Source: Abditibacterium sp.
GTDB taxonomy: Bacteria > Armatimonadota > Abditibacteriia > Abditibacteriales > Abditibacteriaceae
Length of the DNA: 64,000 nucleotides
NCBI GenBank assembly: GCA_965199495.1
Contig: CBDASK010000003.1
Coordinates: 1,120,001 to 1,184,000, forward strand
Direction of reading: 5' to 3'
Shown: piece by piece, positions 27,193-45,732 of the stretch
How the letters are laid out: every line of letters starts with the position of its first letter
Position numbering within the stretch: the stretch's first letter is position 1
Translations under genes and position numbers: made by a program
The notes under the pieces: model-generated
Databases searched by the model: none
What the model saw: the letters and a program-made list of their open reading frames with translations, nothing else
Told to the model about the DNA's origin: nothing

Positions 27193-28404
27193 ATGGAACA
27201 TTCCCTTTTGTCATCATTGCCCTCAGCATCTTCCCCTTCCCCTCCTCCCAATCAGCAGCATATCGCCACCGTAGAGGAGCAAACGAGGTATCCCGATGCA
27301 AGTGACTTCTCTTTCCGGGAGAATAAATCTCCCGCTTCGCAAGTTCGTCTCGGAGCCACCGGAATAGACACGCTCAAATTGTTCTTTCCTTTGCGACTCA
27401 ACCGTCGCCCTGATTTTCACGTTCTCCAGCGCAATCAGACGCGGGGACGTGATGTAGGGGAAGGTTATCTGTGGCGCGATCCAACGGGAAAACTCGCCTA
27501 CGGTTCAATTGCCGTGCGACGTTCGGGAGAGTTCCGCTTTCGCATCGGCCCCGTCGGAACGGAAACAAAGCTGCGCGCCTTCTTCTCCGCTTCCACTGCC
27601 ACCTTTGGCAATAATACCTACGCAATTACCCAAGCAGAGCTACAAAGTGCCTTAGAACGCATGGAAAGCACACTCTACGATTTGGGATTAGATGTGAACT
27701 GGCGCGAAGGACAAGTTTCACGCGTTGATGTGCATCGAGATGTCTCGTTACCTCGCCCCTTCCACTACTACTTGGCCGCCCTCCAAATCATCGAACCTCG
27801 CTATGGGCGCATCTTCCAGAATTTCCCTACTGGCGTGCTACGCGGAGCCGCCACGCGCTTGGTTTATAATCTCTACGATAAACGAGCGCAGTGCCGCCAT
27901 CGTGCTATTTCACCACCGCCAGAGACAGATTCTTATCCGGCGTGGCTCCGCTGCGAAGCCCGTCTCCCGACCGCCTCCGCCGTTCGCAGTGCGTTAAATA
28001 TCGGCACTGCCGGAGAATTAGTAGAAGTCTTCGACCAGCTCCCGAATTGGTTGAGTGAACGTATCGGCCAAGACCTTCTCCACGAAGCAGTGCCCGATTA
28101 CATAGGGATGCCCAAAATGGCAAGCCCCACTTTTACGCCGGAAGATGAGACGTGGTGGGCAGCACAACTTCTGGGAGAGGCCGAGGGTTTGCGAGACCGT
28201 CTCGCTCTAATCGCTTTGCGCCTTGCTTCTTCAACGATTGGGCCGCAGAGATTTTGGGAATTAGCCAGGCAAGAGGATTGGAGCCAGAGCCTGCAAGTCA
28301 CTAAACACCGTAAGCATCTGAGACAAGTGGCGATGAACTCTTTCTCTGATGAAATGATTCCCGTCGCCCAACTTTATCGCGAATTGAAAGTAGCGTTGCT
28401 TTAA
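27193..28404 (+). CDS. Rep_trans / phage-plasmid gene II-like rolling-circle initiator or relaxase
   Basis: GIDTLKL, VSRVDVHRD, YNLYDK, WLRCEARL motifs. Confidence 0.7.
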   Translation: MEHSLLSSLPSASSPSPPPNQQHIATVEEQTRYPDASDFSFRENKSPASQVRLGATGIDTLKLFFPLRLNRRPDFHVLQRNQTRGRDVGEGYLWRDPTGKLAYGSIAVRRSGEFRFRIGPVGTETKLRAFFSASTATFGNNTYAITQAELQSALERMESTLYDLGLDVNWREGQVSRVDVHRDVSLPRPFHYYLAALQIIEPRYGRIFQNFPTGVLRGAATRLVYNLYDKRAQCRHRAISPPPETDSYPAWLRCEARLPTASAVRSALNIGTAGELVEVFDQLPNWLSERIGQDLLHEAVPDYIGMPKMASPTFTPEDETWWAAQLLGEAEGLRDRLALIALRLASSTIGPQRFWELARQEDWSQSLQVTKHRKHLRQVAMNSFSDEMIPVAQLYRELKVALL

Positions 28405-28487: not shown

Positions 28488-28886
28488 ATGAATAATAGAA
28501 GCATAACAGTGGGAGGAAATGTCACGAACAGCCCTTTGAGCACTGGAGACAACGCCTTCATTCAGCAATTCAACCAGACGAGCTTGCAAGCGGAAGACGT
28601 AAATATCCAACAAGAGGTCGCTGGTCTACGTGAGATACTCTCGCAACTCCAAACTCCCGATCAAGGAAAAATAGATCGGGCCTTGACTGATGTAGAAGAA
28701 GAGACTGATAAAACTGAGCCTGACAAATCTGAGGTCGAGAAGAGTATCGAGCGCGCGATGGATTACGCAAAGAAAGCCGACGGCTATGCTGAAGTCATGG
28801 AAAAACTGGCGGTGAGATTGCTGCCGATAGCAATATGGTTGGGCTTGAATGCGGACAAATTCACCCAAATCACATCGAGTTTTTAA
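28488..28886 (+). CDS. Small protein: N-terminal Asn/Gly-rich amyloid-like motif plus helical-bundle domain
   Basis: MNNRSITVGGNVTNSPLSTGDN followed by amphipathic helices ending LLPIAIWLG. Stop overlaps the convergent gene. Confidence 0.75.
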   Translation: MNNRSITVGGNVTNSPLSTGDNAFIQQFNQTSLQAEDVNIQQEVAGLREILSQLQTPDQGKIDRALTDVEEETDKTEPDKSEVEKSIERAMDYAKKADGYAEVMEKLAVRLLPIAIWLGLNADKFTQITSSF

Positions 28887-31800
28887 AGTGGTGCGTTGCG
28901 GTAATGGTCGTATACATCATCAAAATTAGAGTTACCTTGGCGAGCCAGTAAGTCCAGCAGTTCGAGAGTGTCTTGGCGTGAGTCCCTGTTTTTAGCAGCC
29001 GTCTCTAAAATGAATCTGGCATTGTCCTCTGATAAATAGGAAGGACGCGTCACATGAGCGCGCATTCGAGAGTAAACGCGGATTGCAATTGTGGGGTCTT
29101 GCTGAACGTGTTTCGCGATGAATCCTTCTAACTCTTCCCATGCGTGCCGAATTCCTTTCTGGCCCTCTAAATGCGGAATGGTATCTAAAAGCAAGGAGCT
29201 AAGGGATGCCAGACTCTCTTCTTCTGGAGCCGCATTCACCAAAAGACAAAGCCACTGCATTTCTTCATCGAAATCGGCGGGATGGCTCTTTTGTGAAGAC
29301 TCGTCGGCACGCCATTGCCAGAACTCACGGACTTTTTGCCACAGCAGCGCCAAAGGCGGTCTTATAATTCCATCTTCTGAATTCTCCTGATTAGCCGCTC
29401 TTTTTTTCTCCTCTGTCATGGTGCGCCAGAGAGTCCATGCGACTTTTCCGCGTTGCTCAGGCGTCGCTTTTTCCATGAAGAGTCTCAGTAGGTTATTAGG
29501 GCCAGCCTCCGAACGCAGATCATACTTCAGGCCAAGTTCTTCGTCGTTGAAATACTCCGCAAACAAATGAACCGCGAAGCTCTCAGTTCGCCGTAGATAC
29601 GTTTTAGTAAGAAATCCCAATTCCATCGCTTCGATTGCTTGAACGTAGATCGGGCGCATTTTGTCGAACAGCGGTAGGTAAAGTTGAGGATTGCTAACGA
29701 TATAAGAATCCCAAGCGGCAGCGAAATACCAGCGGCTCTCTTTGTCTGTGCCCAAAGGGAAGATGTCGTATAAATGCGCTTCTGTCCATTCTTGATGGAG
29801 CCAGTAAAAGCTGACCAAATGCCGTCCATAAACAGAACGCACAGCATGGCTGGGATCATAGTTCAAATTTAAATGAGTTGTCAAAGTGGCGAGCACTTGT
29901 GGTTCGATGCGTCTTAACCCCGCGCCTATGCGAGGATGACCATCTAAGCCGCGCTCCCAAAGAGTGGATGAGTAGACCTCCAAAGCACTCAAAGCCTCTG
30001 TTCTGACATGGTTAATAGCGACGATAAGCGGGTCTTGATGCCCCAACCAACCCTCTTGTGGTCTGTCGCTCATAGCATCAGGATCAGGGTCTTCAGCGAA
30101 AAGCATTAGCGAATCACGGACGCGGGGTAGAAGGCTATCTGGAATTTTGCGTTGATCTTTCTGAGCCAATCCATTGCTGATCATAGACACCAAACTGCGG
30201 CGCACGTCAGACCAGCCACCGTGGATGTTACGAGTCATATCAACGCTCAATTTTTGGTCAGCGAGAATGCTTTCTGCTAATTGTAAACGCCACTCCCACA
30301 TCTCGTCATCGCTCATAGGAACTAAAAGCATCGCATCGAAGGTCGAGTTAGGCTCAACATTTACGACAATCGCATCCTCTTCTGGCAAAGTGTTCTCAAC
30401 GTCAATTGTAAAAATTTCTCCCGAAGAAATCCCAGAATTATTCTCTTGCGAAGACACAGCTTCTGTTTCAACTGAATCGGAAGATGAATATACGCGACGC
30501 GTTCTTCCACGTCTTGGGTTCCGAATAGAGCCTTGAGTTCCTTTGTGCGATGATTGTTTTGGAAGCTCAGATTCTTCGAGAGAAAAAGTGACGTTGATCA
30601 TTGCCAAAGCCAAAGCTGGGCGCAACTTAAATAACGGCACGATCCAACGGTCGTAATAGAGCAAATTCTGGCGCAGCACATAAGCGATATCACTGGCCAA
30701 TCCATCCCAGTTGACCTCTACAAGACCTCCCCCTTGCAAAGTCGGTGATTCCCAAGTGCTGAGAAAATCCCAGAGTTGCGACGGCGTGTAGCGACTCAGT
30801 TCTTCGCGTGATAACGGACTACTATTAGATACAAAGCCTCCCATCATATAGTTGTTGAAGGAGGGATGTTCGGGCTTCTTAAAGCGTGCAACTATGTCGT
30901 CCAACAAAGTCTTCTCCGCGTTTGGCAGATGCGCCCTTATCATCCATAACCGGTCACGCCGCCACAAATCAAGATAAAGCTGGCGAAACTCCGCAGCATC
31001 CCCGCCCTTAATGGACAACCCCCATTCTACGCTGCTCTCCAAATACTCTTCCGAAGGCCCTCGCAAAATAATATCGAGCGCGGTTCGCTGATCAACCTCA
31101 CTCATCAAAGGAAATCCTTCTGCCAAAACGTTGAAGAATTCGTGGTGAATATCAGAGTCGTGGTAATTATCTGCGTCCAACAATATTTCCGTTACAAACG
31201 GAATCAACTCGCCTGGAAAGAAGCTCAGCAGGTGAATTCCTAAACGGCGCAAAATCTGACGAGGGTGAGCGAGATAACGCTCGATGTGTCCTCGCACATC
31301 CTCTATGTTGTCTTTGCCTTGATCTTGCAACGTGTCGCGCAACAGCTCCAAGAGGAAATCTTTGTGGGAAAACCCGTTATCCTGATCAGATTCTTCAATA
31401 GCCCTCCGCCACCATGTATGATCGGGCGCCTTTCCACTAAAGCCTTGCGTCTCTGCTTCAACATCCAAGGTTTCAAGCAACCGAGCTTCCCACACTTCGC
31501 GCAGAGCCTCAAAATCGCACTGTCGGAGCAGAGAAAAAAGAGGTCTTTCCTCTTTGTTGTCTAAACGCAATCGAGATGTCGTATCCAACACTGACAACGC
31601 GTCTGCGTTGAGGACGTATTCCCCTTCACCTGAACCAGATATAGCTCTTGCATTGCCGTTGGGGTGAGGTTTAGCCAAAGCCTTCAAAAGCTCGAACGCG
31701 GCGGCGTGGCTGTGTCCAACAAGAGCTTCGACCAACTCAAACGCTTCGTAAACCAATGAGGCGGATAGAGCTATGTCTTCGATCCAACTACGCACTAAAA

Positions 31801-32239
31801 ATAAGACAGGTTCGATGTGGTCGGGATCGGTAACTACTAAATTGGTAAGCGCGCGCAAACCAGCCTGTAAGAACCGAACATCAGCCTTTTCAGAATTCAA
31901 GAAATTCAAGTGTTCCAACACATAGTTGGGACGCTTCACAGCGTGGTAAATCAAGAACTCCTGCAAGTCCCAGAAACGGAACCAACCGGAGTTGTCTTCC
32001 AAAGTCTCAATAGCAGGAATAACTTTATAGAAGCCTTCTTCCCAAAGGACATCTAACCATGCAACGTGAGGTCGCGCTCTGAAGAATTCGCGTCTCAAAT
32101 CTTTCTTCTGACGTAACACGTCCAAAGTCACTGCCAACGCGGCAGCATCCGACCGGGGACTACTCTGTTGGGCATAGTCGGTCAGAATAGCTGTTTGTGT
32201 ATGGAACGTTACCTGATGCGTATTTTCAGATTTAGACAT
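28883..32239 (-). CDS. Large helical-repeat protein resembling the sensor half of Avs-type STAND proteins, with no NTPase motif
   Basis: 1118 aa, overlaps the upstream ATPase by 8 bp. AINHVRTEAL..L...DPSHAVR resembles AVINNERGIAF...DPSPVMR in 33475-38145. Confidence 0.7.
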   Translation of the reverse strand: MSKSENTHQVTFHTQTAILTDYAQQSSPRSDAAALAVTLDVLRQKKDLRREFFRARPHVAWLDVLWEEGFYKVIPAIETLEDNSGWFRFWDLQEFLIYHAVKRPNYVLEHLNFLNSEKADVRFLQAGLRALTNLVVTDPDHIEPVLFLVRSWIEDIALSASLVYEAFELVEALVGHSHAAAFELLKALAKPHPNGNARAISGSGEGEYVLNADALSVLDTTSRLRLDNKEERPLFSLLRQCDFEALREVWEARLLETLDVEAETQGFSGKAPDHTWWRRAIEESDQDNGFSHKDFLLELLRDTLQDQGKDNIEDVRGHIERYLAHPRQILRRLGIHLLSFFPGELIPFVTEILLDADNYHDSDIHHEFFNVLAEGFPLMSEVDQRTALDIILRGPSEEYLESSVEWGLSIKGGDAAEFRQLYLDLWRRDRLWMIRAHLPNAEKTLLDDIVARFKKPEHPSFNNYMMGGFVSNSSPLSREELSRYTPSQLWDFLSTWESPTLQGGGLVEVNWDGLASDIAYVLRQNLLYYDRWIVPLFKLRPALALAMINVTFSLEESELPKQSSHKGTQGSIRNPRRGRTRRVYSSSDSVETEAVSSQENNSGISSGEIFTIDVENTLPEEDAIVVNVEPNSTFDAMLLVPMSDDEMWEWRLQLAESILADQKLSVDMTRNIHGGWSDVRRSLVSMISNGLAQKDQRKIPDSLLPRVRDSLMLFAEDPDPDAMSDRPQEGWLGHQDPLIVAINHVRTEALSALEVYSSTLWERGLDGHPRIGAGLRRIEPQVLATLTTHLNLNYDPSHAVRSVYGRHLVSFYWLHQEWTEAHLYDIFPLGTDKESRWYFAAAWDSYIVSNPQLYLPLFDKMRPIYVQAIEAMELGFLTKTYLRRTESFAVHLFAEYFNDEELGLKYDLRSEAGPNNLLRLFMEKATPEQRGKVAWTLWRTMTEEKKRAANQENSEDGIIRPPLALLWQKVREFWQWRADESSQKSHPADFDEEMQWLCLLVNAAPEEESLASLSSLLLDTIPHLEGQKGIRHAWEELEGFIAKHVQQDPTIAIRVYSRMRAHVTRPSYLSEDNARFILETAAKNRDSRQDTLELLDLLARQGNSNFDDVYDHYRNAPL

Positions 32240-33461
32240 CGAAAATTCTCCTTAATCTCGCTTCGCGCGTGGGGTCTTCTAACTCGTCAACTTTGGCAAT
32301 TTTTTCCATCCACACTATAACATTCTGTGCTCTAAAAATTCCTAATGCACTGGAAATATCGCTCTCGTTCATTCCATCTTTCAGAGCATTGGTGGCGTAA
32401 ACGAAGTTTTGCAAATTTTCATGCGAGAAGATGCAGATTCGAGAATTTTGCGAACGTCGTCGAATGAATCCTTCGCTAATTAGCCGGTTGTGGTGTTTGT
32501 TTTCTGGATCATCTAATCGAAAAGTGCCCTCTGGCGATTTGAGAGTTTTAGCCGCTAACAGACTCAATTCAGCCATCAACGCATCTCCTGATTCTGTATG
32601 TTGGCGTTGGAAAACGTCAAGCCTCGCCTTCCACAGCATCACGTCATTAGTCAAATTACTGAAGTCGAAATCAGGATTTTTCTGATGAATAGCGGCTATC
32701 AGCGAAAGGTTTAATAGGTTCCTCCCCAACTCCACCACTTCCTCCGAAGAATTTATAATTTTTAGCTTTTTGAAATATGGCAATGAGTCGAGTAGTTGAA
32801 TGCTTTCGACCCTATGAAATGAGCGACTATCCACGAGAGGAGCCAGCAATGCCTCCTCTCGAACTTCCTTTTGCCGTGAGATGACAACGACATGTATGCC
32901 CAAGCTGTGGCAATCCAAAGCAGTCTGGATGATTTCTCTCCCAGCAGCAGAACCCGCGATATTATCAACTTGGTCGAAGACAAGCAAGAAATCCATATTT
33001 GGCTCTTGCCATTCCTTGGTGATTTCCAAGCACGCTCGACTTAGGGAGAGATTTCCCAAAGAGAGATAATTCTGTAAATCCACTGAATTGCTCACGCCAT
33101 AGAAGTTACGGCAATCGAGCATTAATCGAGGTTGTTTTCGCTTTTCAGCGCCATCCATAAGTAGAAATCCCAAACCACTTTTGCCTGTCCCAGAATCTCC
33201 CACGATTAAAGCAGACTGTCCTCTCTTGAAAGCACTCTCAACATCATTGACTTCATCACGCATGATCAAATCTAAGCCCTCAATGAATGGTCGGCTATTG
33301 CGCGTTGCGCGGATATTTCTGTCCTCAAAAGTCTCCCAAATAGAAGACATGATGTTAATATAAACTTTGGAGTTATCGCCTGTAACAACGGGGCTGTTAT
33401 TGAGGTCACCATTGATATTGACTGTTCTGTTGTTCATTGGATTTTCGATGAAGACATTCAC
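32232..33461 (-). CDS. Short STAND/NACHT-like P-loop ATPase with N-terminal amyloid-like motif
   Basis: Walker A GDSGTGKS, Walker B LLVFDQVD, VVISR, RNLLNLSLI, winged-helix FSHENLQNF. Confidence 0.8.
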   Translation of the reverse strand: MNVFIENPMNNRTVNINGDLNNSPVVTGDNSKVYINIMSSIWETFEDRNIRATRNSRPFIEGLDLIMRDEVNDVESAFKRGQSALIVGDSGTGKSGLGFLLMDGAEKRKQPRLMLDCRNFYGVSNSVDLQNYLSLGNLSLSRACLEITKEWQEPNMDFLLVFDQVDNIAGSAAGREIIQTALDCHSLGIHVVVISRQKEVREEALLAPLVDSRSFHRVESIQLLDSLPYFKKLKIINSSEEVVELGRNLLNLSLIAAIHQKNPDFDFSNLTNDVMLWKARLDVFQRQHTESGDALMAELSLLAAKTLKSPEGTFRLDDPENKHHNRLISEGFIRRRSQNSRICIFSHENLQNFVYATNALKDGMNESDISSALGIFRAQNVIVWMEKIAKVDELEDPTREARLRRIFDV

Positions 33462-33474
33462 ATATTAATGCTGC

Positions 33475-36400
33475 CTAACGTCTGTCCCACTCTGTCAGTA
33501 GGTTTTGAGCAACACCGACATTTTGCTCCATCAGTTGATCGAAGGTTTTCAAGGCTCTTTCTCTCCAATCGTCGCTACAAAGCGGATCGGTATATACACG
33601 TAAGGCTAAGCGCATCCAGTCCTCGGATAAGTAGAATCGGTTCTTCTCCTGGTATGTATTGGACAGACTTTTCTCCAAAAGAAAAAGCATATCTTCCGGC
33701 TGTGCCTCGCAAATAGACCATAAGAAGTCGCGCCAACCATCCAATCCATCAAACAGCGATTTTGAATCAGCGAACGAAGTGGCAAAATCGTAAATCGCGT
33801 CGGGCGGAAGATTCACTTGATTCTTAGTGACCCGTCTGAAGACGCTTGCCACTATCTGTCTAACTTTTTCGTTCTCGTCATTCAGAAGCAACTTTAGCCA
33901 CTGAAGACACTCATCTGCCGCAGCACTTGTGAGATTATTGACCGCGATATTAGCCACTGCCAAACGCCACGGAACACGCCCACTTACACAACGATTAGCA
34001 ATAGCACGCACTTCATTCCGAACAGAATCACTTTCAAGAACTAACGGAGATATTGTGGCGATACAAACTAATTCTGCGCCACTTTGGGCGCATTCATCGT
34101 CGTGAGGTGAAGTATTAAGTTCGCGTTCTCGCTTTACATGGGAAGACCAATCTCTCATGCTATCTCTGCCTAAAATTGCGTTAGAAGGCCGAGTCTCCGG
34201 CTCCGGTATCACCGTCGCTTTCGTTGGGTTTTCCGCCCCTTGATTCATCATCTTTTCTATATGCGGCAACAATACCTGCAATTGACCGTTCATTGCCCAG
34301 TAGATAAATTCTCGAGTCGCGCCAGCACGCAATATCTCTGGGCGACCTCTCACTGATTGTTGGAAAAGCGTAGTCGCTTCTCCTTTACAGTTTTGGAGAT
34401 GATATTTCAATTCCTCAATGCCAGCGACACGCATTACAGGTGACGGATCTTGCGCAACAAACTCCAGTAACTTCCAGCGACGCTCCTCGTAAATCACCGA
34501 ATTCCGGTTGTCGAAAATTCTCATCAAGGTTTGAAAAGCAATTCCCCTTTCGTTGTTGATGACGGCGTTGTGTGAGTCTTGAGCTGAATGCGTGACCAAT
34601 CGTTCTCTTTCTTTTTGAAAATCGTCATCTAAGTCGATCTCGCCATGAGGCAAGCCACGCACATAGCTTTCCAGCAAGTCGATTAAGTCTGGTGGCAAAA
34701 TCTCTATGCGCTTTTCCAAATTCCAAGCTAAATAGCGACGTGTCTCAGCCCATGACAGCATTCCTCCCTTTCCGTATCCCTGAATGCCTGGGGACGGTGC
34801 CAAAAGCCTAACTGCTTCAAAAAACCAATCAACAGGCGCGACAAAGGGCGAAATCAACTGCTCGTGAGTTGACGATTGATTTGTTTTCTCTTCCACCTCT
34901 TCCTGCAGAAGAATATTACGTTCTTCGAGAGGCTTTGTCGCCCCAGAGAAACCCTCCATAAAAGCGTGTCGGTAAGGTAAATCCAGAGATTTATATTCAC
35001 CCGAATCTTGAAGGCGGGTGAGCAAATTCTTGAAGCGTTGCGGCTGAGCGACAATGCTATCTACTAAGGCGCCCGAAAAGGAATTGCGCTGTTCAGCAAT
35101 GTCACGCGCATCGAGTGAGTCAACGGGCTTATTCCATGTAATATGAAATATGTCGAGCCACTGCCGATCAGATATTTTCAGGGCTTTATCGAGTGGCAAA
35201 GCCATACGATTTCTCATTGACCGAAAAATGCTGGGAGAAGTTTCAGCTTCTGCTTCAGGGAATTTCCGCCGCAACTCGCGCACAACGGCACGCGCGTTAT
35301 CACTCCGCAGTTCCGGTGCAAATGCTTCCAAGTGCAGTAATTCCTCTTCGCCTCGAAATTTGAGCATATGTCGCCCGTTTCCATACCAACGCCTGACATC
35401 ACGCGAACACTCGATAAGAAACTCTTGCAACTCTTCGCGTGTTTCTATCGAAAGATTTGGGCTGATGAGCGTGATTAGATGCCTCGAATCGAACACCTTG
35501 CGGTCTCCTATTCTCAATCGGCGACTATCTCCCATCAGGTAGAGAGCAGCTTCTTCCCCCAGTAATTCCGGAGAAAGCTGAAAAGTGTGCACCAGTATTT
35601 GGTGCATGGACAAACGCTCCCAAACTGCTATTCGCCCCATCCACTGTTGAAACAACGCGCGATTACTTGTGGCAAGTTGGACTAACGCATTGGCTACGCC
35701 TTCCACAATGAAGTGGCGCACACAGTGTCCACTGCCATGCCAAATCTCATAGATTTCGTCATCACCGTAATGGTAACGGGATTCAGTGTGCTTGTTAGTA
35801 GTTCCCAACGCCCTTTCAATCCAAGGCACAATTTGGTTAATGAATTCTTCTGGTTCGAGTGTAGGCAACTCTTCAAACAGATCATGAGCAGAACTACCAT
35901 TCAGAATCTCAAGTCGTTCTGACAGCGAGTAGGTTTGGAGCCGTAACAATTCATGTGAACTATCGGGATATTTTGACTCCGTGCGATGAGCATTGAATAC
36001 CGCCAGTAATCCATCCAAGATAATACGAGTGACGCGACACGCGGCAGCAGGATCGAACTTCATTAGCTCTTTCAAACTCCACATATTTCCAACCATCAAT
36101 TTTTCTCCTCGCGCTAAGACAGTATTAATTTTGGTAGAGATAACGGTTTCGAGTAAAGTAACGGCAGACTTCGACTTCCACTCACCAATGTTACCCAGCC
36201 ACCCTTCCAAACGTTCGTTCCAAGCATCACTTCGCCCAACGAAGGAAGTAAGTAATTCTGCCACATCATCTTGTGCTACATGATTCATCGAACTCAGATA
36301 ACGGAACACCACGTGGTTCAGAAATTCATCCTCTGACAATTGTAACCATGAAGGAAGTAATGATTTTTTGACGCGGAGGAACCAACCCAAATTGTTCCCC

Positions 36401-38145
36401 ATCCAAGGTAACAATTCATCGCGCTGAGTTGATGAATTTAATAATCGCTGTGCAACACGCCATTCGCCTTCGGTGGGATCGCGTAAGGCACCAAACCAAC
36501 TTCTCAACAATGTTTTCAGATGTTGTCGCAGAGAAGGTGAAGATAATAGTTGTTGAAGCTGGACTAAATAAGCATCAGGGTCGCTGCCTCTCAAGTAAGC
36601 AATGGTCTGGAGCATTTGAGGACGAGCGTATAAAGATTGATCGCCCTCTAAGATAAATGCCGTCAGATCGCCTCGATTTTCTACAAACGATTTAGCGACA
36701 CAGAAGTCTATGAACGTTTGGTGTAGAAATGCCCATTCATTACCCGCTTCCACTAAGATTCCAACACTCGCTAACCATCTCACTGAAGATTCCAGATCGC
36801 GGTTTTCAGGCTGCGAGAAGAGGGAGCGTGGAGCAGAAGTTTTCCGATTTTCTCTCATATACTCTGCAACTTTCTCAACAGCCGCTTCTCTTTCTGCAAT
36901 AGGAGGCGCTCCAGACTCCTCACGACGCAAGACGGAGTTCCATAACAAACGATACAAATCTTGGAGTGTCGTGACTCCATAGCCTAAATCAGCCACAGAC
37001 TGCGTAATGTTCTTTGACGATTTCTCAAGCGCGGTGATAAAAATATCGAGGTGCAATGGCACTCGCAGCAGTTCGCGAGTAGAAGTGGAAAGCGAATTCC
37101 AGTCCAGCCCTTGGTTCTGGATGAAGGGGCGAACATCTTCCTCGTTCAACAGAGGAATATCGAAGGTGCTGCAAATCGCCAGATGACGCAGACGCGTATC
37201 AGAGTGCAAATCGAAAGTGCGACAGGATATAAGAATGCGAACTTTTGGTATTTCTTTGAGACGAGCGACTACTTCCAAAATAATATCCATCGCGCGTTGG
37301 TCACGGGATAAAGATAAAGATAAGGCATCGAGTTGATCAACTATAACAAGGACAGGGCCATTAGCAGCCAATCGACTCACAACTTCTTCCAGAGAGGTAG
37401 GTAAGTTCAAAGAGATGGCAAGGTCTTCCGGTATCTGAACACCTGCGAGTTGTTGGTCAGATTTTATTGCTAAGACGCATCCCCAATCCTTTTCCAGAGT
37501 GAGCATTACGTCGCGCGCAACACTGGTTTTCCCCATACCTGCACCATCAAGCAAAACGCCGATACGAGAATTTCCTTTTTCTTGCGCGTTCGATGAAAGC
37601 TCTGACTCGCTAATTTTGGCCCATTCCACTATTTTGCTAACCACATCTCGTGAGATAGCCTTTCCACTTTGTCCAACGGTGTGTTTGTGACTACGTAGAA
37701 GGGCGCCACAATTATGAGCACTGTCCCGCAGTTGTTCCAGTGAAATAGGCTCAGAGTCCTTTGAGAATTCGCTCTTTCCGATGGAAATACGCGCTTTTTC
37801 TTCGGCGTCAGTCTTCCATTGTTGCAAAACAGGAACAGGATGACGACTGACGTCATTGTCTATGTGCTTAGCACAGTTCTGACACAGCCAGATGCCATTG
37901 CCAATATCTTTTCTTTGTTCTGAGGTTAGGTTTGAATCATAACGTGGGCCACCCACTGCCGCTGCCGTGATATGAGCGCCTACGCCGACATTAACTGATT
38001 TGCTCTCATCATCTTGGGGGCCACAAGTTAATGCACGACAATCGGGATTAGAACATTTTTGTCCAACCCTGTCCGCCATTATACGCACAATCGAAGGAGG
38101 AAAATTATCTCTCTTTGACATCATAAAGTAGCCTCTGTGATTCAA
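33475..38145 (-). CDS. HNH-like nuclease + STAND ATPase + helical sensor (Avs-like NLR)
   Basis: CSNPDC...AHITAA..GGPRYD...NGIWLCQNCAKHID, Walker A GAGMGKT, Walker B IVDQLD, ISCRTFD, LLRVPLHL, FLHQTFIDF. Confidence 0.88.
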   Translation of the reverse strand: MNHRGYFMMSKRDNFPPSIVRIMADRVGQKCSNPDCRALTCGPQDDESKSVNVGVGAHITAAAVGGPRYDSNLTSEQRKDIGNGIWLCQNCAKHIDNDVSRHPVPVLQQWKTDAEEKARISIGKSEFSKDSEPISLEQLRDSAHNCGALLRSHKHTVGQSGKAISRDVVSKIVEWAKISESELSSNAQEKGNSRIGVLLDGAGMGKTSVARDVMLTLEKDWGCVLAIKSDQQLAGVQIPEDLAISLNLPTSLEEVVSRLAANGPVLVIVDQLDALSLSLSRDQRAMDIILEVVARLKEIPKVRILISCRTFDLHSDTRLRHLAICSTFDIPLLNEEDVRPFIQNQGLDWNSLSTSTRELLRVPLHLDIFITALEKSSKNITQSVADLGYGVTTLQDLYRLLWNSVLRREESGAPPIAEREAAVEKVAEYMRENRKTSAPRSLFSQPENRDLESSVRWLASVGILVEAGNEWAFLHQTFIDFCVAKSFVENRGDLTAFILEGDQSLYARPQMLQTIAYLRGSDPDAYLVQLQQLLSSPSLRQHLKTLLRSWFGALRDPTEGEWRVAQRLLNSSTQRDELLPWMGNNLGWFLRVKKSLLPSWLQLSEDEFLNHVVFRYLSSMNHVAQDDVAELLTSFVGRSDAWNERLEGWLGNIGEWKSKSAVTLLETVISTKINTVLARGEKLMVGNMWSLKELMKFDPAAACRVTRIILDGLLAVFNAHRTESKYPDSSHELLRLQTYSLSERLEILNGSSAHDLFEELPTLEPEEFINQIVPWIERALGTTNKHTESRYHYGDDEIYEIWHGSGHCVRHFIVEGVANALVQLATSNRALFQQWMGRIAVWERLSMHQILVHTFQLSPELLGEEAALYLMGDSRRLRIGDRKVFDSRHLITLISPNLSIETREELQEFLIECSRDVRRWYGNGRHMLKFRGEEELLHLEAFAPELRSDNARAVVRELRRKFPEAEAETSPSIFRSMRNRMALPLDKALKISDRQWLDIFHITWNKPVDSLDARDIAEQRNSFSGALVDSIVAQPQRFKNLLTRLQDSGEYKSLDLPYRHAFMEGFSGATKPLEERNILLQEEVEEKTNQSSTHEQLISPFVAPVDWFFEAVRLLAPSPGIQGYGKGGMLSWAETRRYLAWNLEKRIEILPPDLIDLLESYVRGLPHGEIDLDDDFQKERERLVTHSAQDSHNAVINNERGIAFQTLMRIFDNRNSVIYEERRWKLLEFVAQDPSPVMRVAGIEELKYHLQNCKGEATTLFQQSVRGRPEILRAGATREFIYWAMNGQLQVLLPHIEKMMNQGAENPTKATVIPEPETRPSNAILGRDSMRDWSSHVKRERELNTSPHDDECAQSGAELVCIATISPLVLESDSVRNEVRAIANRCVSGRVPWRLAVANIAVNNLTSAAADECLQWLKLLLNDENEKVRQIVASVFRRVTKNQVNLPPDAIYDFATSFADSKSLFDGLDGWRDFLWSICEAQPEDMLFLLEKSLSNTYQEKNRFYLSEDWMRLALRVYTDPLCSDDWRERALKTFDQLMEQNVGVAQNLLTEWDRR

Positions 38146-38488: not shown

Positions 38489-39367
38489 GAGTCTGTGCTC
38501 GAAAGGAGTCATTTTCTACCATTCGGGTTCCAAGGTATGCAGTATTTTATCGATCATGGCCCATAGCATCCAAGCTCGGCTGAGATAAGTGTGGCCTTCG
38601 TAGTCTTTGCTTAATGCTTAAGCGCCGGTAGTAATTCATCCAGCCAAAGCTGCGTTCCACAACCCAGCGCACGGGCAATACCTCGAAGCCCTCTGCTCCG
38701 TCGTTGCGCTTAACGATTTCCACCTCGAAGCCAAACTGCCGCTCCATCTTCTCCTGCCACCCCCGACCCGCAAAGCCGCCATCGGCCCACATCACATCCA
38801 ATGACGCGCACATCGACTGCCCAACTATGCGCCAGAATCTCGCCTCGGCTCCTGCGCGTTCGGGCACACTGGCAGGTAAAACTAAAACTTCAAGCCAGTA
38901 GCCCAGAGTGTCCACCACAACAAAGCGCTTGCGTCCGCTCAGGCGTTTGGCTCCATCATAGCCGCGTTGTAGCAAACAGGAGTGCCCCCTTTTGATACCA
39001 CTTTGACGCTCTGACTATCTGTGATAGCGGCTGTAGGTGTTGCTTTTTGCCGTGGAATGTGCGCACTTCTTTGTGGAGCGAGGTATAAAGTTTGTCTAAC
39101 ACGCCGTTCCAGGCCCGGCGATGGTAGCAAGAATACACCGTGCTCCAATTAGGAAGATCATGGGGCAAGTTATGCCATTGACATCCGGTGCGCGCGATAT
39201 ACAAGATGGCGTTGACAATCTCGCGTCTATCCACGCTCGAACGACGCCCTCTGGCGCTTTCGACGTAAGGCCGCACCTCGGCCCACTGTTCATCTGTCAA
39301 ATCGGTATCGTAAGAGCGGCGCATCACAACTCAATTTGACTCCATTACTCCTTTCGAGCACAGACTC
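38489..39367 (-). mobile_element. IS5-family insertion sequence (879 bp)
   Basis: 21-bp perfect TIRs (GAGTCTGTGCTCGAAAGGAGT at 38489-38509, inverse at 39347-39367) with TA on both flanks. Confidence 0.92.
38547..39327 (-). pseudogene. IS5-family transposase split over at least three frames
   Basis: YDTDLTDEQW...RTGCQW..LP.D, then TAAITDSQSVK, then GYDGAKRLSGRKR..VVDTLG...WADGGF...RWVVERSFGW, each in a different frame. Confidence 0.85.
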
Positions 39368-42300
39368 TATGAAATGTATGTTGTGGACCAAAATATCACT
39401 GGATTTTGCAAGTAGCTTTGCAATCGATCCCATAGATCGGGGCGCATCAATAGTTCGCAGCCGATAAAACGTGGGCACTGCTCGTCCATTCCACTTCCAA
39501 TAGAACGCACAGACCAATGACGAAAGACAATGCCGATGTCGCCAGAATCATCGACAAGATGAAGTCTTTTCGGCCAATTGCCAGGCGACAAGCCAAGCCA
39601 CGCCGCAATCTGTGGAGAGAGAGACAAAATCCAACTCTCCCCTAACGTATCTTGGATTTCATCCAGCCCCACGATGCCGCCGCATCGAGAAGGATGCAAG
39701 TGCCCGTGTTGTGCAATTGCATCGTCAGAGCCAATGAACCAATCCTGCGGGTCACCTTGAATGAAGGGATATCCGTTCGCTGAGGGCAAGTCGGATGGCC
39801 CACGCGAAATTAGGGCACCTTGTAAAGTCCTGATCGAGGAAGATAGATACTGCTCGGAGTAAGATGTAACATCACTACCAAGTTCTTCTTCGATAGCAGC
39901 CAGTCTGATCCAGCCATTGAAGACAGAATTTTCTTGAACGGCGTTGGGAGTTGCAAGCAGTTCCACTTCTTGGCTCGAAACAGCGTAAAGCTTTCGGGGA
40001 AGCGGTAAAAACGGACGGGGAATCCGGCTGTTCCAAAGAGAAGTATGTAATCGTATGGAGGAAGTAACTCGTTGAAGTAGCCCCAGTGTAGATTCCGGTG
40101 CCCAAAGCCCCTGACGCACTAAATGGTTGTCAATGTTGTCGAGTAATTCTTGGAAGCTCGCTTCATATATCTCTTGATGCCACCAAAAACACCGAGTTGT
40201 CGGAGCATGGGGATGAACGCGGCTCTTGGCGGATTTCATCAACTCGCCGTCTCTGATTTGGTGTCTTTTGCTGGCGTGGCTTTGTCCCTGCCAAATAGAT
40301 TCGAAATGTTGGATTACAAGAGATGGAAAGTCGGGCCAAACTCTCTTGATTGTATTCGCACGATTGCCCCAATCCAAAGCTGCAATCTTATTCTCAAGAC
40401 GAGGATCGAGAGTCGGCACGTGGTCTACGTGATCCGACAGGAAAGGTAAGTGAGATTTCACTTGGGTAAATCTTTCTAACAGAAGATTCGCCGTGGCTCG
40501 CAGAGCGAAGTGTTTGCATTGTCGCAGCGCAGACAGCTCGTCATACAGAAACTCCGTGATAGGATATGGTTCAATTTCGCTGTTCCAGAGAATTTGCAGA
40601 CAGTGAATCGCCGTTGTTCCATTGATATCGGATTTGAGTAACTCCTTGATCGGAATTTTTAAAGTCAATGGGGCGGTCTGCAAAACGGCACAGACGCCAA
40701 CACAAGCCGCTTGACGCCTTTTATATTCGGGATGACCTAATCGAACCAACAAAAGAAAACTCAGCGCTTCATCAGGTGTCCATTTCGGGACTTGTTGCGG
40801 TTCATAAACCGCAAATGTGCGGTAGCCGGATCCGATGTCAGGTAATCGGGTTTCCAGAACGCGACAAACCTCCTCCCAGGCATCAAAAGCTAAGTTGGGA
40901 TTTTGGTGCCGCGCGCAGAACTTGATGAGGTTTTGTGCCATACCATTAAGATATTCCTTATTGGCGTAGAAGGCGACCTCATTAAATAACACCTCGAAGG
41001 CGACCGGAGAATTTAAATCCCTGGCTTGAAGTAACCAAGATTCAAACTCATTTCCTCCCAGGAATTGGTAGCCGCCCTCGCTGCGCGAACTTGCGTAAGC
41101 CAATGCGAAGGCCACGGCTGCCAGCCATATTTTGCCATAGCGTAAGAAGCCTTCTCCCAAGTGTCCCAGAGGAGTTGCGCCATGATAGAACAGATTCTCG
41201 CGTGCAAAGTGGCGAAGTAGTCTTAGCACCTCGCCCTCGCCCTCACCCTCACCATCATCTTCAGCCAAAGCCAATAGACGATATCCGAAAGCATTGACAA
41301 AATTATCCCAGTGCCCACTTTCCTCTTTGGAGTTGTAAGAATGAAACGAACGGAAAATCGACACCAAATCCGCAGGAGTCGCGTTTGGAGGAAAAACTGG
41401 CTCCCATACAGGCTTTTTTGTTCCTTCCAAAGAAGATTGATGCGCAGGCGGTGAGGGTTGTGAATTCTCACTGGCTTGTGCCTCGCTCACTTCTACTTCT
41501 TCGAACTCATTCTCAGGAGGTAAAATAATGTTCCACTGCGCTGCGAACTCTCGAACAAGTTCAAGAGCCTCTAAGGGACGGCTTGGGCCATCGCCTTCGG
41601 CTTGGGCCAAAAAGTTTTCTGTAGCGCGTTCACCCCATTCGTTATGGACTTGACTGCCACGGCCCTTCTCCATCAAACAGCTCAGTGTTTCCAAGCGACT
41701 TTGGGCCTCTCTCTTCACGTCATCACCATATTCGCGGGAGAGAGCAGGAAAAGGGCGAGTGGCGTCCAGAAAGGTGACAATCAGTGGGTCACAGTCGTCT
41801 CGCTTGCGAGCCTCGTCCAAAACAGATCCGAGGGCCTCATTCAGCATCCAACCGGTCTGATCATCGTCTTGACGCAGAGTTTGAGCCATAACATGGACGG
41901 CGCCGACAAAATCAACGCGCAATAGGGCTTCGAGCCACGAAATCGGCAGACGATTAGTGCTACGGCCATCCGTATGCTTCACCACTGCATCGGGTAAACG
42001 TTGCACACGACAGCACAGACTTTTAGCGCGTTCACCATCGAGATCGGCCAAAAGCGTTAATGGATCGAGGATTTCGTAGAGGGAAATGTCTTTGCGAAAT
42101 CCATACGCCGAAAGAAACTGAGCAGACTTCTCCCAAGCTGTGCTTGCTTCTTCGACACGCTCTGTCGCTAAGAGCGCGCGAACCCTCCAAAATTCATTCT
42201 CGGCGTGCGTCTCATAGTATTGACTATGCTGTTGCCAATCATCGGCCAGTCCTAACAAAAATCTCAGAGCCGATTCTTTGAGTTGAGGCTCATTGGCTAA

Positions 42301-45300
42301 ATTCAGCAAAGACTCAAAAAGGCGAATAGGAGCAAAAGGCCCATTGCCTGACCTATCGAGCCAAGTCGTTGTCTCATAGGAGATGGTGCGAAGAAAAGAT
42401 AAAGTCTGATCCAGAACATCAGGATGCCTTATTAGCGCAGTAGCCCGTCCAAGAATGCCAGTTATGACCGAGTGAATCTGATACAAATCACAGGCTCGCG
42501 GGTTACCCTCGAAAGGCTTTATATCGTGAGCCAAATTCTCCAGAGAGGCTGAAATAAGCTGCTCGGAAGGCAAAGGAGCCGAGTTGGAATCTGCGCCAAC
42601 TTGATCTTCTTGGCGGCGCAGGTTTTCAGCTTGCATAAGCTGAGGGACAAACCGCAACCACTGACGATACCAACCAATTCCTTGTGGCAAGGCTTTGGTG
42701 GTCTCCAAAAGAGTTGGATTCGTCCAAGAAAGCAATTCATTTATCCACACCCAGGAATCGACTAAAAAAGTGTTGGGGTGTCGCTCTGAATTCAAAGACT
42801 GAGCTAAATCCGTTAGCTGTTGGAGTGTCGGTTCAAATGCAGATAGCAGCGTCGCGTCGCAACTTAAAGAAGCACATTCAACCACCAATTCCAAAGGCGG
42901 TGAGTAAGTCAAGGCGAGATCGGCAGCCTGCCGCGCTTCAGTAAACCGAGCGGCACTCAAGTAAGCACGAGCGACTTCGACTTGGATTAGAGCCACGATT
43001 TCTTGGCTATAAGCACCTGCGTCAGCCTGCATCCCAATCAACTCCTCCAAAGCCTCCACACCTATGACTTCCCTAACAGTAGTGATGTAGCCGCGTGCGC
43101 GACCAAGTGGGTAATCGTCGTGAATACTACGGCGCGCTGGCGCGCCGTTAGGAGCTTTAGTTTGCTGACGATCTCGACCGAATTGCCCCAACCAATTGCA
43201 TAGCCCTTGCTTACAAACATCCCAACCAAATACCCGTAACTCGCCTTGAAATTGTGCGGAGCTTTCTAAATCGCTAAAATGCGATTGGTATGAACCTTCG
43301 GTCGTTGTATCAGATAAACCCAAATATTCTGCCCAAGGAACGGATTTCCCCTCTCTATCTCCAATCGAGCAGAGAATGAGACCCTCTTGGCGAATCATCG
43401 TAGGACGGCCATCAAAAAGCAGACGCTCACTCAATATATCCGCGCCATGCACTTGAGCCAGGGTGCGCCCATATTCGAGCATTTCCAACTTGCCCTCGAA
43501 TACCATGCTGGCGTAGCGCAGATGAATGAGACGACACATCGCGGCCCAGTCACCTAATTCAGTGGCAACTGCTAAACCTAAAGCAATGCTGGAATTGATC
43601 GCTTGTCGGGGTTGGCCAGCGGCGATACTGTGAGCAACGAACTCGGTTTCAAGGTATTCAAGAACTTGCGCCCCGTATCCAGCCCGCCGCAAATTAGGCA
43701 GTAGAAATCGGTAGGCTTTGGCATCGAAGTAAAAAGGGCGTTTGCGGAGCCAGTCAATTAGCGGCTGCAAAAGCTGAGGCAAAGTTTGGGAGCCTCCTTG
43801 AATCCTTTCCAAAACGAAACGTCGAAAACTTTCGTGGTAGATGCGAATGCCACCTTGAGATGAAGTTTGCTTGAGGATGGGCCGCAACCGTTTCAACCAT
43901 CCTTCAAGGCGATGACCCAGCAAAGGGAAAATCTCGCGCAACTCGTCGGATTTCAATCCGAAATCGACTACCCCCAAAAGTTCGGCGGCAAAAACAGCAC
44001 TGGCGTCTTCCTTCTCCAGAGCATGAAGTAAAAAGTCATAGTAATTAGAAATTCGGCCAGAGAATGCCGGAAGTTCGTTCAGCTTCTCGTGCCAGAAAAC
44101 CGCGCTCTTTTCTGCACCCAATTGAAGCAATTCCGCACAAAGAAACGTGGCGTAAAGTGGATTACCTTCGCATCGCTCATGTAATTCACCCACGATTTCA
44201 TTCCAAGCTATATCAGCGGCTTCGTCTGGCTGTTCCCATCTTCTGGGCACCAGATGCCCAGAGCGAGACAATACGGTCTTGAGTTCACGCCGCAAGGCCA
44301 ACTCTTCAACATCGGAGAGCGACCAATCTGGCACCACAATCTCTTGCGTCCGATCTCGGATCGGGTCGAGATGTTGCCCCGGTTGGGAACCTAAAATTAG
44401 AGTTACTCCTTCAGGCACACGAAGCGCTTTGAGTTGTTCGATGATATCCACATCGCTCTGGCTGAGATCGCGCTCTTCGCTCAAAACACGCGCGATATGG
44501 TCGAGGCCATCGACAAAAATAATGACTTGCCTTGTCGAACTACTCGTCACTGCATGAGGAAGTAATTGTTCAAAAGCAGCCGCATCTGCGGCGTATATCG
44601 GTTGATGCTGCGCTCTAAGAGTCGGCGCATTTTCTATAAGTTCGACGATGACATTACCCCACATCGCGTTCGTCGTGATGCGCTTCTGAACTTCGACATC
44701 GCCCGGCTCCAAATAACAGTAGTGGCGCGCCACTAAATGCCCCGCCTCTCTCAATTCTCGGCTTAAAGATTCTTGCAGCCAGGATTTGCCAGCTCCAGGT
44801 AAACCTGTCAGCAGAATCAACTCGCCATCTGCAGACTCTATTTTTTGATGCAGATGATCCTGAAACTGAGAGCGGCGAACAAACTCTTTTTCTTCGAGTG
44901 GAAAGCGTTGTGCGACTCGCCCAAAATCGCGCCGCAAGCGTAGAAAGGTTTCCAAGGAATCGACCGTAACCTGACCATCTTCCACTCTGCACTTCTGTGC
45001 TAACCACATCATACTCGCCGCCACATCTATTGGAGTTCGTTCCTGATTCGGGTAGCGACCAATACCAATTCTGTCACGCAAAACCTCAAGGATGAGCATT
45101 TCCAAAGCACCAGGCTTACTAAAGTCGTTGGAAATCGCTGGGCACTTCAACTCTAAAATAAATAGGGATGCAAATTCAACAAAATCCTCGCGCGTGATGT
45201 CAGGTGCATCTTTCAAAGGCTTCCATCGAGATTCTTCTCCGAGAGGCCAGATTTCTTCAACGTTGAAGCGAAATGTCGAGGTGGCGTGACCTTCGAAGCT

Positions 45301-45732
45301 GCTGGAAACGTTGGCATTCTCTAAGAACCCCAAGACACTTGCGTCCGTGGGGTTCAGCCAAGTCGCACAAAATCGGTATTGGGACGCTTGCGAAGCGCCT
45401 GCATCACGGTGACTGCGAATAAGATCATCAATGCGCGCCCTATTTCGGCGCGTAGTTAAATCTTCCAACTGGAACTGTTTCGTAGCATCAGCGCTATGCT
45501 TAATCTGCCGCCGCGTATGACCCTCCGAGTTAGCAAGGGCAACGTCATCGAACTTATCAGTTTTGTGGATGAGCTGATTCGCAGTGAGAACACCTTCCTG
45601 TGCAGCCACAGTTTTGAGCATCAAGTAACAGACAACTGCATCTTGGTAGGTGTAACCACGCATAGCGGCTTCGAGGCTTGATGGGGTTAATGGAACAGAG
45701 GGAGCCAGAATTGTGGAAGCAAGTGAAACCAT
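39367..45732 (-). CDS. PD-(D/E)XK (Cap4/Mrr-like) nuclease + STAND ATPase + long sensor (Avs-like NLR)
   Basis: AAMRGYTYQD...FDDV...QIKH nuclease motif, Walker A GLPGAGKS, Walker B FVDGLDH, GNPLY, IYHESF; 2121 aa. Confidence 0.88.
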   Translation of the reverse strand: MVSLASTILAPSVPLTPSSLEAAMRGYTYQDAVVCYLMLKTVAAQEGVLTANQLIHKTDKFDDVALANSEGHTRRQIKHSADATKQFQLEDLTTRRNRARIDDLIRSHRDAGASQASQYRFCATWLNPTDASVLGFLENANVSSSFEGHATSTFRFNVEEIWPLGEESRWKPLKDAPDITREDFVEFASLFILELKCPAISNDFSKPGALEMLILEVLRDRIGIGRYPNQERTPIDVAASMMWLAQKCRVEDGQVTVDSLETFLRLRRDFGRVAQRFPLEEKEFVRRSQFQDHLHQKIESADGELILLTGLPGAGKSWLQESLSRELREAGHLVARHYCYLEPGDVEVQKRITTNAMWGNVIVELIENAPTLRAQHQPIYAADAAAFEQLLPHAVTSSSTRQVIIFVDGLDHIARVLSEERDLSQSDVDIIEQLKALRVPEGVTLILGSQPGQHLDPIRDRTQEIVVPDWSLSDVEELALRRELKTVLSRSGHLVPRRWEQPDEAADIAWNEIVGELHERCEGNPLYATFLCAELLQLGAEKSAVFWHEKLNELPAFSGRISNYYDFLLHALEKEDASAVFAAELLGVVDFGLKSDELREIFPLLGHRLEGWLKRLRPILKQTSSQGGIRIYHESFRRFVLERIQGGSQTLPQLLQPLIDWLRKRPFYFDAKAYRFLLPNLRRAGYGAQVLEYLETEFVAHSIAAGQPRQAINSSIALGLAVATELGDWAAMCRLIHLRYASMVFEGKLEMLEYGRTLAQVHGADILSERLLFDGRPTMIRQEGLILCSIGDREGKSVPWAEYLGLSDTTTEGSYQSHFSDLESSAQFQGELRVFGWDVCKQGLCNWLGQFGRDRQQTKAPNGAPARRSIHDDYPLGRARGYITTVREVIGVEALEELIGMQADAGAYSQEIVALIQVEVARAYLSAARFTEARQAADLALTYSPPLELVVECASLSCDATLLSAFEPTLQQLTDLAQSLNSERHPNTFLVDSWVWINELLSWTNPTLLETTKALPQGIGWYRQWLRFVPQLMQAENLRRQEDQVGADSNSAPLPSEQLISASLENLAHDIKPFEGNPRACDLYQIHSVITGILGRATALIRHPDVLDQTLSFLRTISYETTTWLDRSGNGPFAPIRLFESLLNLANEPQLKESALRFLLGLADDWQQHSQYYETHAENEFWRVRALLATERVEEASTAWEKSAQFLSAYGFRKDISLYEILDPLTLLADLDGERAKSLCCRVQRLPDAVVKHTDGRSTNRLPISWLEALLRVDFVGAVHVMAQTLRQDDDQTGWMLNEALGSVLDEARKRDDCDPLIVTFLDATRPFPALSREYGDDVKREAQSRLETLSCLMEKGRGSQVHNEWGERATENFLAQAEGDGPSRPLEALELVREFAAQWNIILPPENEFEEVEVSEAQASENSQPSPPAHQSSLEGTKKPVWEPVFPPNATPADLVSIFRSFHSYNSKEESGHWDNFVNAFGYRLLALAEDDGEGEGEGEVLRLLRHFARENLFYHGATPLGHLGEGFLRYGKIWLAAVAFALAYASSRSEGGYQFLGGNEFESWLLQARDLNSPVAFEVLFNEVAFYANKEYLNGMAQNLIKFCARHQNPNLAFDAWEEVCRVLETRLPDIGSGYRTFAVYEPQQVPKWTPDEALSFLLLVRLGHPEYKRRQAACVGVCAVLQTAPLTLKIPIKELLKSDINGTTAIHCLQILWNSEIEPYPITEFLYDELSALRQCKHFALRATANLLLERFTQVKSHLPFLSDHVDHVPTLDPRLENKIAALDWGNRANTIKRVWPDFPSLVIQHFESIWQGQSHASKRHQIRDGELMKSAKSRVHPHAPTTRCFWWHQEIYEASFQELLDNIDNHLVRQGLWAPESTLGLLQRVTSSIRLHTSLWNSRIPRPFLPLPRKLYAVSSQEVELLATPNAVQENSVFNGWIRLAAIEEELGSDVTSYSEQYLSSSIRTLQGALISRGPSDLPSANGYPFIQGDPQDWFIGSDDAIAQHGHLHPSRCGGIVGLDEIQDTLGESWILSLSPQIAAWLGLSPGNWPKRLHLVDDSGDIGIVFRHWSVRSIGSGMDEQCPRFIGCELLMRPDLWDRLQSYLQNPVIFWSTTYIS

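Follow-up and report, generated by a model that had tools for sequence, protein, structure and literature searches.

A motif shared by two genes of a defence island

The window analysed here is a 64,000-nucleotide stretch of an Abditibacterium sp. genome (contig CBDASK010000003.1, positions 1,120,001 to 1,184,000), and our subject is a group of three genes within it. They encode a 132-residue helical protein, called the partner below and considered a putative effector (28488..28886, plus strand), a stand-alone helical-repeat sensor of 1118 residues (28883..32239, minus strand) and a STAND NTPase with an NBD-HD1-WHD core (32232..33437, minus strand). The start of the sensor gene overlaps the stop of the ATPase gene by 8 nucleotides and its own stop overlaps that of the convergent partner gene by 4; lying between the other two, it is counted as a member of the module. 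An earlier sequence-only reading had proposed that the partner and the ATPase form an amyloid-signalling pair, and both open reading frames (ORFs) and both N-terminal motifs were found where it had placed them: residues 1-22 of the partner (28488..28553, plus strand) and residues 1-22 of the ATPase (33372..33437, minus strand), 3.3 kb apart on opposite strands. The ATPase motif does begin at the ATG at 33437, but this is not a second Met as had been assumed, the upstream start of the 409-residue frame being a GTG at 33461. Translation may begin at either codon, giving 401 or 409 residues.

The two motifs are identical at 12 of 22 positions, as first read, and the other ten positions are mostly conservative in BLOSUM62 (six positive, three zero, one negative). 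The claim that identical residues mostly use different codons also holds, with 7 of the 12 encoded differently and 5 by the same codon, one of which is Met; at the nucleotide level the two stretches agree at 38 of 66 positions. The sole significant BLASTP local match between the proteins connects ATPase residues 1-43 with partner residues 1-41 (E 2e-7), and the remainder of the two proteins gives no further significant match, consistent with their being otherwise unrelated.

Whether the motif is equally common in other proteins of this genome was addressed with 4.63 million 21-residue windows from 41,754 stop-to-stop frames of at least 60 residues, covering the whole genome. Each motif is the other's best non-self match, with a score of 71, the runners-up scoring 39 and 42. 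A receptor-side motif profile drawn from 34 loci other than the window ranked the ATPase first (26.4 bits) and the partner second (20.5 bits), the next frame scoring 7.5; a partner-side profile separated the ATPase less clearly (8.3 bits, rank 4). The pair in the window thus stands out alone by pairwise score and receptor-side profile, and no third motif-bearing protein was found among these frames of a genome that is 95% complete. Because the codons differ, the match is the best mutual one genome-wide and the profile ranks are one and two, we regard the similarity as specific and maintained at the protein level. A recent DNA duplication as the source of the motif was rejected, since the residues are kept while the codons differ.

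Comparison with published bacterial amyloid families assigned the motif to BASS6, both by a dataset search and by a count by eye. The family consensus word RSVSIGG occurs eight times in the BASS dataset (PMC8086366, supplement 1), in C09 entries in the passages compared, and C09 is BASS6 according to the dataset README. The partner motif is identical to C09_s004 at 13 of 19 positions and to A9WJ48 at 11 of 19, counted by eye. The motif family is rich in G, S, N, V, T and I and poor in charge, a composition described for amyloid motifs, and some relatives have two pseudo-repeats of the motif (L008, L034, L039, L045), given as a BASS6 trait in the parts of Dyrka et al. (10.1101/2020.01.06.895854) that were compared. 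The G-hydrophobic-Q-hydrophobic-G core of RHIM, PP and BASS3 is absent from both motifs of the window, and membership in RHIM or BASS3 was rejected on this ground. The sister families BASS1, 3 and 11 are described as forming fibrils and cross-seeding at 43-56% pair identity (10.1101/2020.01.06.895854; 10.1101/2024.11.07.622273), a range, as given there, within which the 55% identity of the window pair falls. By sequence, then, the motif itself is one already known.

Pairing and co-variation across bacteria

Relatives of the partner were collected with a four-row profile, which returned 96 proteins of 72-266 residues; a single-protein word search gave three near-copies only, and the four-row alignment was needed to reach the family. 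Gene neighbourhoods were compared at 52 partner loci, comprising 49 from genome contigs, one in a second genome of the phylum (G161), one on a plasmid and the window itself. A P-loop ORF is present at 44 of the 52, and at 35 such an ORF carries a matching motif at its N-terminus, a match being a stretch that scores at least 40 against the motif of the same locus's partner. None of 433 other ORFs, used as a control, matched a partner motif (maximum score 35). A motif shared by a STAND N-terminus and a protein within about 5 kb is therefore found in the window (3.3 kb) and across the 35 loci. Stand-alone partners are paired with a matching receptor in 12 of 15 cases. The remaining 37 partners are longer fusions, and their loci are not independent because they come mostly from related cyanobacteria. 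The gene order of the matched pairs is co-directional in 33 cases and convergent in two; the convergent layout, which had been called unusual, is real but rare, and the interpretation does not depend on it.

Fourteen proteins were scanned for receptor type, and the matched receptors among them comprise six nSTAND1 proteins (five with WD40 repeats), one P-loop-TPR protein and two without a Pfam match. The partner is used by receptors of at least three classes. Cyanobacterial proteins in which a CHAT protease, the motif and the helical bundle follow one another adjoin nSTAND1-WD40 receptors whose N-terminus carries a matching motif (L008:7290-8402, L013, L015-L018, L029-L032 and others), and two motif-tipped receptors occur in one locus at L015, L017, L036 and L051.

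The partner was detected in 3 of 401 genomes of the phylum, and a member of the ATPase family in 10. Both motif-tipped ATPases of the phylum (G000 and G161) are accompanied by a partner, and no partner was found in the 8 phylum genomes with long-N-terminus ATPases, three of which are 87-89% complete. The third partner of the phylum (G040) lies 16 nucleotides upstream of a P-loop-TPR receptor that has its own matching motif. The partner occurs in none of 44 metagenome loci of the ATPase; the sole one of these with a motif-like N-terminus, L075, is uninformative because its contig is 1.6 kb long.

That homologues of the two genes should stay together is borne out by G161, which retains both in the same layout at 45-49% protein identity. 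The motif has changed there in both genes and yet is still matched: scores are 77 and 55 within the two loci, and 45 and 29 across them. The layout is also kept in contigs of sequencing run X4 that are about 90% alike. In G161 the counterpart (L005:15487-19920, minus strand) of the HNH-bearing STAND gene at window positions 33475-38145 has lost its HNH domain and has a BASS6-like N-terminus instead, which scores 35 against its own partner and up to 53 against others. Since this protein also has a BASS6-like start, two Avs-type sensors may feed the one partner of G161.

The same tendency extends over the 35 matched loci, where each receptor was picked without regard to its own partner. Mean scores within and across loci are 56.6 and 47.6 (n=35), 57.8 and 45.0 for pairs below 80% identity (n=19), and 59.9 and 42.4 below 65% (n=11). 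These means were reached in none of 100,000 permutations; the permutation leaves relatedness in, and the pairs span unrelated receptor classes. The own partner ranked first in 9 of 35, 7 of 19 and 6 of 11 cases. The expected co-variation of the motifs is thus seen as an excess of within-locus over cross-locus scores.

The partner family, the receptor and their neighbours

The partner consists of the N-terminal motif, a short linker, a four-helix bundle (residues 40-118) and a C-terminal amphipathic helix (122-130). Its AlphaFold2 model has a confident bundle, with 72 residues at a predicted local distance difference test (pLDDT) value of at least 90, and residues 1-30 are disordered, the motif lying below 50 in the monomer. 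The order of motif, linker and helical domain is kept in all 50 aligned relatives, in which A65, E82, R89, W117 and G119 are invariant, the last two forming W117-x-G119. With moments of 0.37 and 0.31, the last two helices are amphipathic, as they are across the 50 relatives, and the hydrophobic maximum falls at residues 102-120, the first 30 residues being the motif region that is unstructured in the model. No Pfam, NCBIfam or PDB family matched the partner. A weak PADLOC match (E 2e-4) covers the C-terminal part of PDC-M14B, fold searches returned generic four-helix bundles only (best Z 8.1, root-mean-square deviation 2.7 over 84 aligned residues) with no clear Foldseek match, and Bab, HeLo and MLKL are absent among the fold matches listed. 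The partner is a single-copy gene, no second copy of its bundle was found in the genome, and phage records and viral contigs yielded no partner.

A tree of 69 bundle sequences places the window protein with stand-alone forms and apart from all CHAT fusions (support 98/94), in a group of 23 rows made up of 22 stand-alone forms and one other. The tree is unrooted and rests on 105 columns, with L041, L054, L055 and one duplicate sequence excluded; within those bounds the idea that the partner broke off recently from a CHAT fusion was rejected. In one locus (L035:8153-10402) the motif and bundle end a 749-residue pentapeptide-repeat protein, and no P-loop ORF lies within that locus.

The ATPase has a Walker A motif (GDSGTGKS), a Walker B motif (LLVFDQVD) and a sensor Arg, and an enzymatic effector domain is absent. 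Its family comprises 206 representatives at E <=0.001, of which the best 150 were analysed; 125 of these have Walker A, 92 of them being shorter than 800 residues (some are fragments) and 33 long. The slot held by the motif in the window is taken in the N-termini of relatives by nuclease, PNP, phosphoesterase, protease or membrane-helix regions, as read from their sequences. Five of the 125 have a motif-scoring N-terminus, and all five are too short for another effector domain. The best solved relative by the ATPase profile is SeAvs7 (PDB 9N00/9N01/9YIX; E 5.4e-14, profile positions 50-372), with which Walker A, the Walker B Asp and the Arg align. For the sensor, Dsr1 profiles gave matches at E 6.5e-13 and 1.7e-12, and the relatives of the sensor, including fused ones, reach E values down to 7e-89; a single-sequence model of the sensor was unusable (pLDDT 41). 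On these matches we provisionally call the receptor an Avs7/Dsr1-like STAND protein. The ATPase was not found in viral contigs.

The division of the receptor into two genes had been thought unusual, and this did not hold up. Of the 44 metagenome loci, 28 encode the ATPase and the sensor in two neighbouring genes and 6 in a single fused gene, the arrangement at the other 10 being undetermined, and split proteins are mentioned in the parts of PMC13581612 that were compared. Because separate genes prevail at 28 of the 44 loci and the junction of ATPase and sensor is bridged gap-free in contigs of two further runs (X2 and X4), the split is a family trait and not damage, and an assembly frameshift was rejected as its cause on the same evidence. 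At L086:2669-12044 a stand-alone sensor gene of the Dsr1/Avs7 type is found some 2 kb upstream of a gene of this family in which ATPase and sensor are fused. In one protein of 1184 residues (P0021) a motif-tipped ATPase is fused directly to the sensor, with the ATPase match stopping near query residue 267; it may be a natural short fusion or an assembly join.

Directly upstream of the ATPase gene and in the same direction lies a second STAND gene (33475..38145, minus strand; 1556 residues) whose product has an N-terminal HNH nuclease, supported by HNH matches. A third (39367..45732, minus strand; 2121 residues) is Avs1/Avs3-like (Avs1b, E 6.6e-19) with a weak N-terminal Cap4_nuclease match (E 0.037), and between the two are short minus-strand frames (38547-39327) that we take to be transposase-like. 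A coiled-coil and TIR protein (20380-21255, minus strand; PADLOC PDC-S66, E 9e-109) lies within a type I restriction-modification-like operon. Because type I restriction-like genes, read from the sequence, and this TIR gene are nearby, the surroundings are a defence island. The partner gene is preceded at 83 nucleotides by a 403-residue ORF without a family match (27193-28404, plus strand), presumably of replication-initiator type and the end of a phage- or plasmid-like gene run from 24918; its counterpart was not seen before the partner in G161. A consensus scan found no promoter-like site upstream of the partner gene, and the promoter and terminator scan around the gene was empty.

A proposed mechanism and its alternatives

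With a confidence a little better than even, and by analogy with known systems, we interpret the three genes as an anti-phage module in which amyloid templating would activate a death effector built back to front. The sensor would bind a protein of the phage, for which homology to Avs7 and Dsr1 makes the major capsid protein the likeliest candidate, and act in trans with the separate ATPase; we put the capsid protein as trigger at about even odds. The ATPase would then oligomerise, as established for SeAvs7 and other STAND proteins, and gather its BASS6 motifs into a cross-beta seed. This seed would template the motif of the partner, as the shared motif, its co-variation and the precedents of NWD2/HET-S and Agp/Bab suggest. 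In the last and weakest step, clustering might open the bundle and free a C-terminal amphipathic hairpin, which would damage the membrane and stop the infected cell. The partner is taken to be the effector by elimination, because the ATPase lacks an effector and neither a second bundle nor a third motif protein was found in this 95%-complete genome. A decoy role, offered as the other option in the sequence-only reading, is weak here on the same observations, the ATPase having no room for an effector. The amyloid-signalling interpretation as a whole is favoured by the computational checks, with the amyloid itself suggested by analogy.

The module resembles described systems in part. As in BASS6 Bell/NLR pairs, a motif of about 22-25 residues is shared by a STAND receptor N-terminus and a small helical protein nearby at an identity in the cross-seeding range. 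In those pairs, however, a Bell domain opening with a hydrophobic helix carries the motif at its C-terminus, whereas here the motif is N-terminal and the amphipathic part comes last; their receptors are NB-ARC or NACHT proteins and the genes are 91% collinear, unlike the split Avs7-like STAND and convergent genes of the window. By this analogy the partner would be a mirror image of the Bell and HeLo effectors, with the motif first and the membrane-acting end last. That two N-terminal motifs are unusual agrees with the published sets compared, which put the motif at effector C-termini: Dyrka et al. (10.1101/2020.01.06.895854), in the parts compared, screened Bell C-termini against NLR N-termini, tested BASS1 and 3, and recorded C-terminal motifs on CHAT, TIR, hydrolase and cyclase partners as well; the same placement at effector C-termini is still given, as far as compared, in a 2025 methods paper and a 2026 review. 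Amyloid-triggered abortive infection was reported for Bab/Agp of E. coli, a BASS11 system (Ibarlosa et al., 10.1101/2024.11.07.622273), in which a phage sensor with an N-terminal amyloid motif and a small helical effector share that motif; from the parts compared, it offers an experimental model for the mechanism proposed here. Agp differs in being a TPR-GreA-PIN protein and not a STAND, Bab has its effector domain first and its motif last, and the motif is classed in another family.

The likeness to Avs7 and Dsr1 lies in SeAvs7 as the best solved relative of the ATPase, the Dsr1 profile matches of the sensor, the interchangeable N-terminal effectors and the split forms mentioned in PMC13581612. 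According to the passages compared of that paper (Lee et al. 2026), Avs7 and Dsr1 share a sensor for the phage major capsid protein, and SeAvs7 is activated by that protein, tetramerises and forms a tetramer with EF-Tu. SeAvs7 is one 1523-residue chain with a Cap4 nuclease, whereas the window has two genes and an effector slot held by the motif alone. The word 'amyloid' is absent from the main text of Lee et al. 2026, and the words split, amyloid, Unknown and BASS have no match in seven of its supplementary files, a scope that leaves aside the large Avs7 tables. In the fungal NWD2/HET-S and HELLP/PP systems and in animal RHIM-RIPK3-MLKL, as described in the sources compared, a receptor oligomer likewise leads by an amyloid seed to a four-helix-bundle membrane effector; the motifs of the window are not of the G-x-Q-x-G type of RHIM, PP and BASS3, and the polarity of the partner is the reverse. 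Neither a motif-first helical partner nor an amyloid-Avs7 coupling is described in the portions of the literature compared, which also comprised PMC13601566, PMC12261475, PMC13506858, PMC8195603, PMC7159879 and PMC12680541, preprint supplements (Dyrka Fig. S5 may show a CHAT fusion) and journal versions lying beyond that scope.

Several observations weigh against the proposed mechanism. The C-terminal helices lie below the transmembrane range (best 19-residue Kyte-Doolittle mean 1.24; family median 1.0, with 1 of 50 relatives above 1.6), and the membrane role that had been suggested for the LLPIAIWLG helix is no more than plausible, the helix being amphipathic and short of the usual transmembrane threshold. 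In 34 of the 37 longer relatives the module stands behind a CHAT domain with His/Cys motifs, and in such fusions the effector could be the protease, with the bundle as an accessory part. Both proteins have proline, a residue depleted in BASS motifs, at motif position 16; BASS6 is not among the families assayed for fibrils in the parts compared of the papers on its sister families. The exact combination of receptor and partner occurs in two genomes only, and among close cyanobacterial kin the own partner is often not first (9 of 35), relatedness being kept in the permutation. The SeAvs7 match is non-discriminating, as the upstream 1556-residue STAND matches it more strongly (E 3.9e-20), and the sensor profile left the SeAvs7 chain unmatched at E up to 1 in the PDB; because of these two results the capsid trigger is tied in through the Dsr1 link only. 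Amyloid formation, toxicity and the trigger are each things that we infer.

It is possible, if doubtful, that the amyloid coupling is real and that the partner acts as adaptor, amplifier or restraint, recruiting an effector without the motif or dampening seeding, and not a membrane attacker. Its generic fold, the conserved charged residues K61, D68, E82 and R89 and its modest hydrophobicity would suit such a role, as would the same module trailing intact-looking CHAT proteases in cyanobacteria and the two nuclease-bearing STAND proteins encoded upstream; language-model neighbours in TCAD2 and DUF4404 clusters point the same way as leads only, not being tied to any description. However, the genome yielded neither a second bundle for homotypic coupling nor a third motif protein, the window protein groups apart from the CHAT fusions, and a partner that only braked would have no target, as the ATPase lacks its own effector. 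Less likely still is a finite, non-amyloid contact, by beta-strand addition or a short beta-arch stack on a STAND tetramer, that docks the partner without propagating fibrils. SeAvs7 is only tetrameric in the account compared (PMC13581612), the co-variation indicates pairing and not the type of polymer, and both motifs contain the proline; yet the composition is that of amyloid motifs, the pseudo-repeats in four loci are a BASS6 trait, and the sister families that were assayed, as reported in the parts compared, are amyloid. That the motif is a relic or coincidence, a copied or low-complexity leader without present function beside an unrelated island passenger, is very improbable. The motif is short and biased in composition, and the two genes are on opposite strands with no promoter-like site before the partner by the consensus scan, but the residues are kept while codons differ, the layout persists in G161 and X4, and pairing and co-variation extend over unrelated receptor classes. 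The control of 433 ORFs, the blind co-variation and the genome-wide profile ranking have largely refuted it.

Returning to the amyloid-templated effector, a broader proposal, to which we give somewhat less than an even chance, is that the partner founds a widespread, reverse-built class of amyloid-switched death effectors that would plug into any BASS6-tipped receptor, whether Avs7-like, nSTAND1-WD40 or NB-ARC-TPR. It could be driven by two different Avs sensors in G161, and in cyanobacteria it would be fused behind a caspase-like protease as a one-chain cascade of receptor, amyloid, protease and pore. The partner family looks undescribed, and its motif-first architecture would be missed by design in published surveys, which screened effector C-termini. 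The motif-first partner and its coupling to an Avs7-like receptor would be the new elements, the BASS6 motif and the split-receptor trait being known. If the interpretation is correct, a second architecture of amyloid-switched effector would exist, and amyloid signalling would be tied to the capsid-sensing receptors of the Avs type, whose triggers and structures are available. The three genes make up a small, clonable system for direct tests of BASS6 and of BASS/NLR pair function, and they offer a possible explanation for STAND genes that seemingly lack an effector domain.

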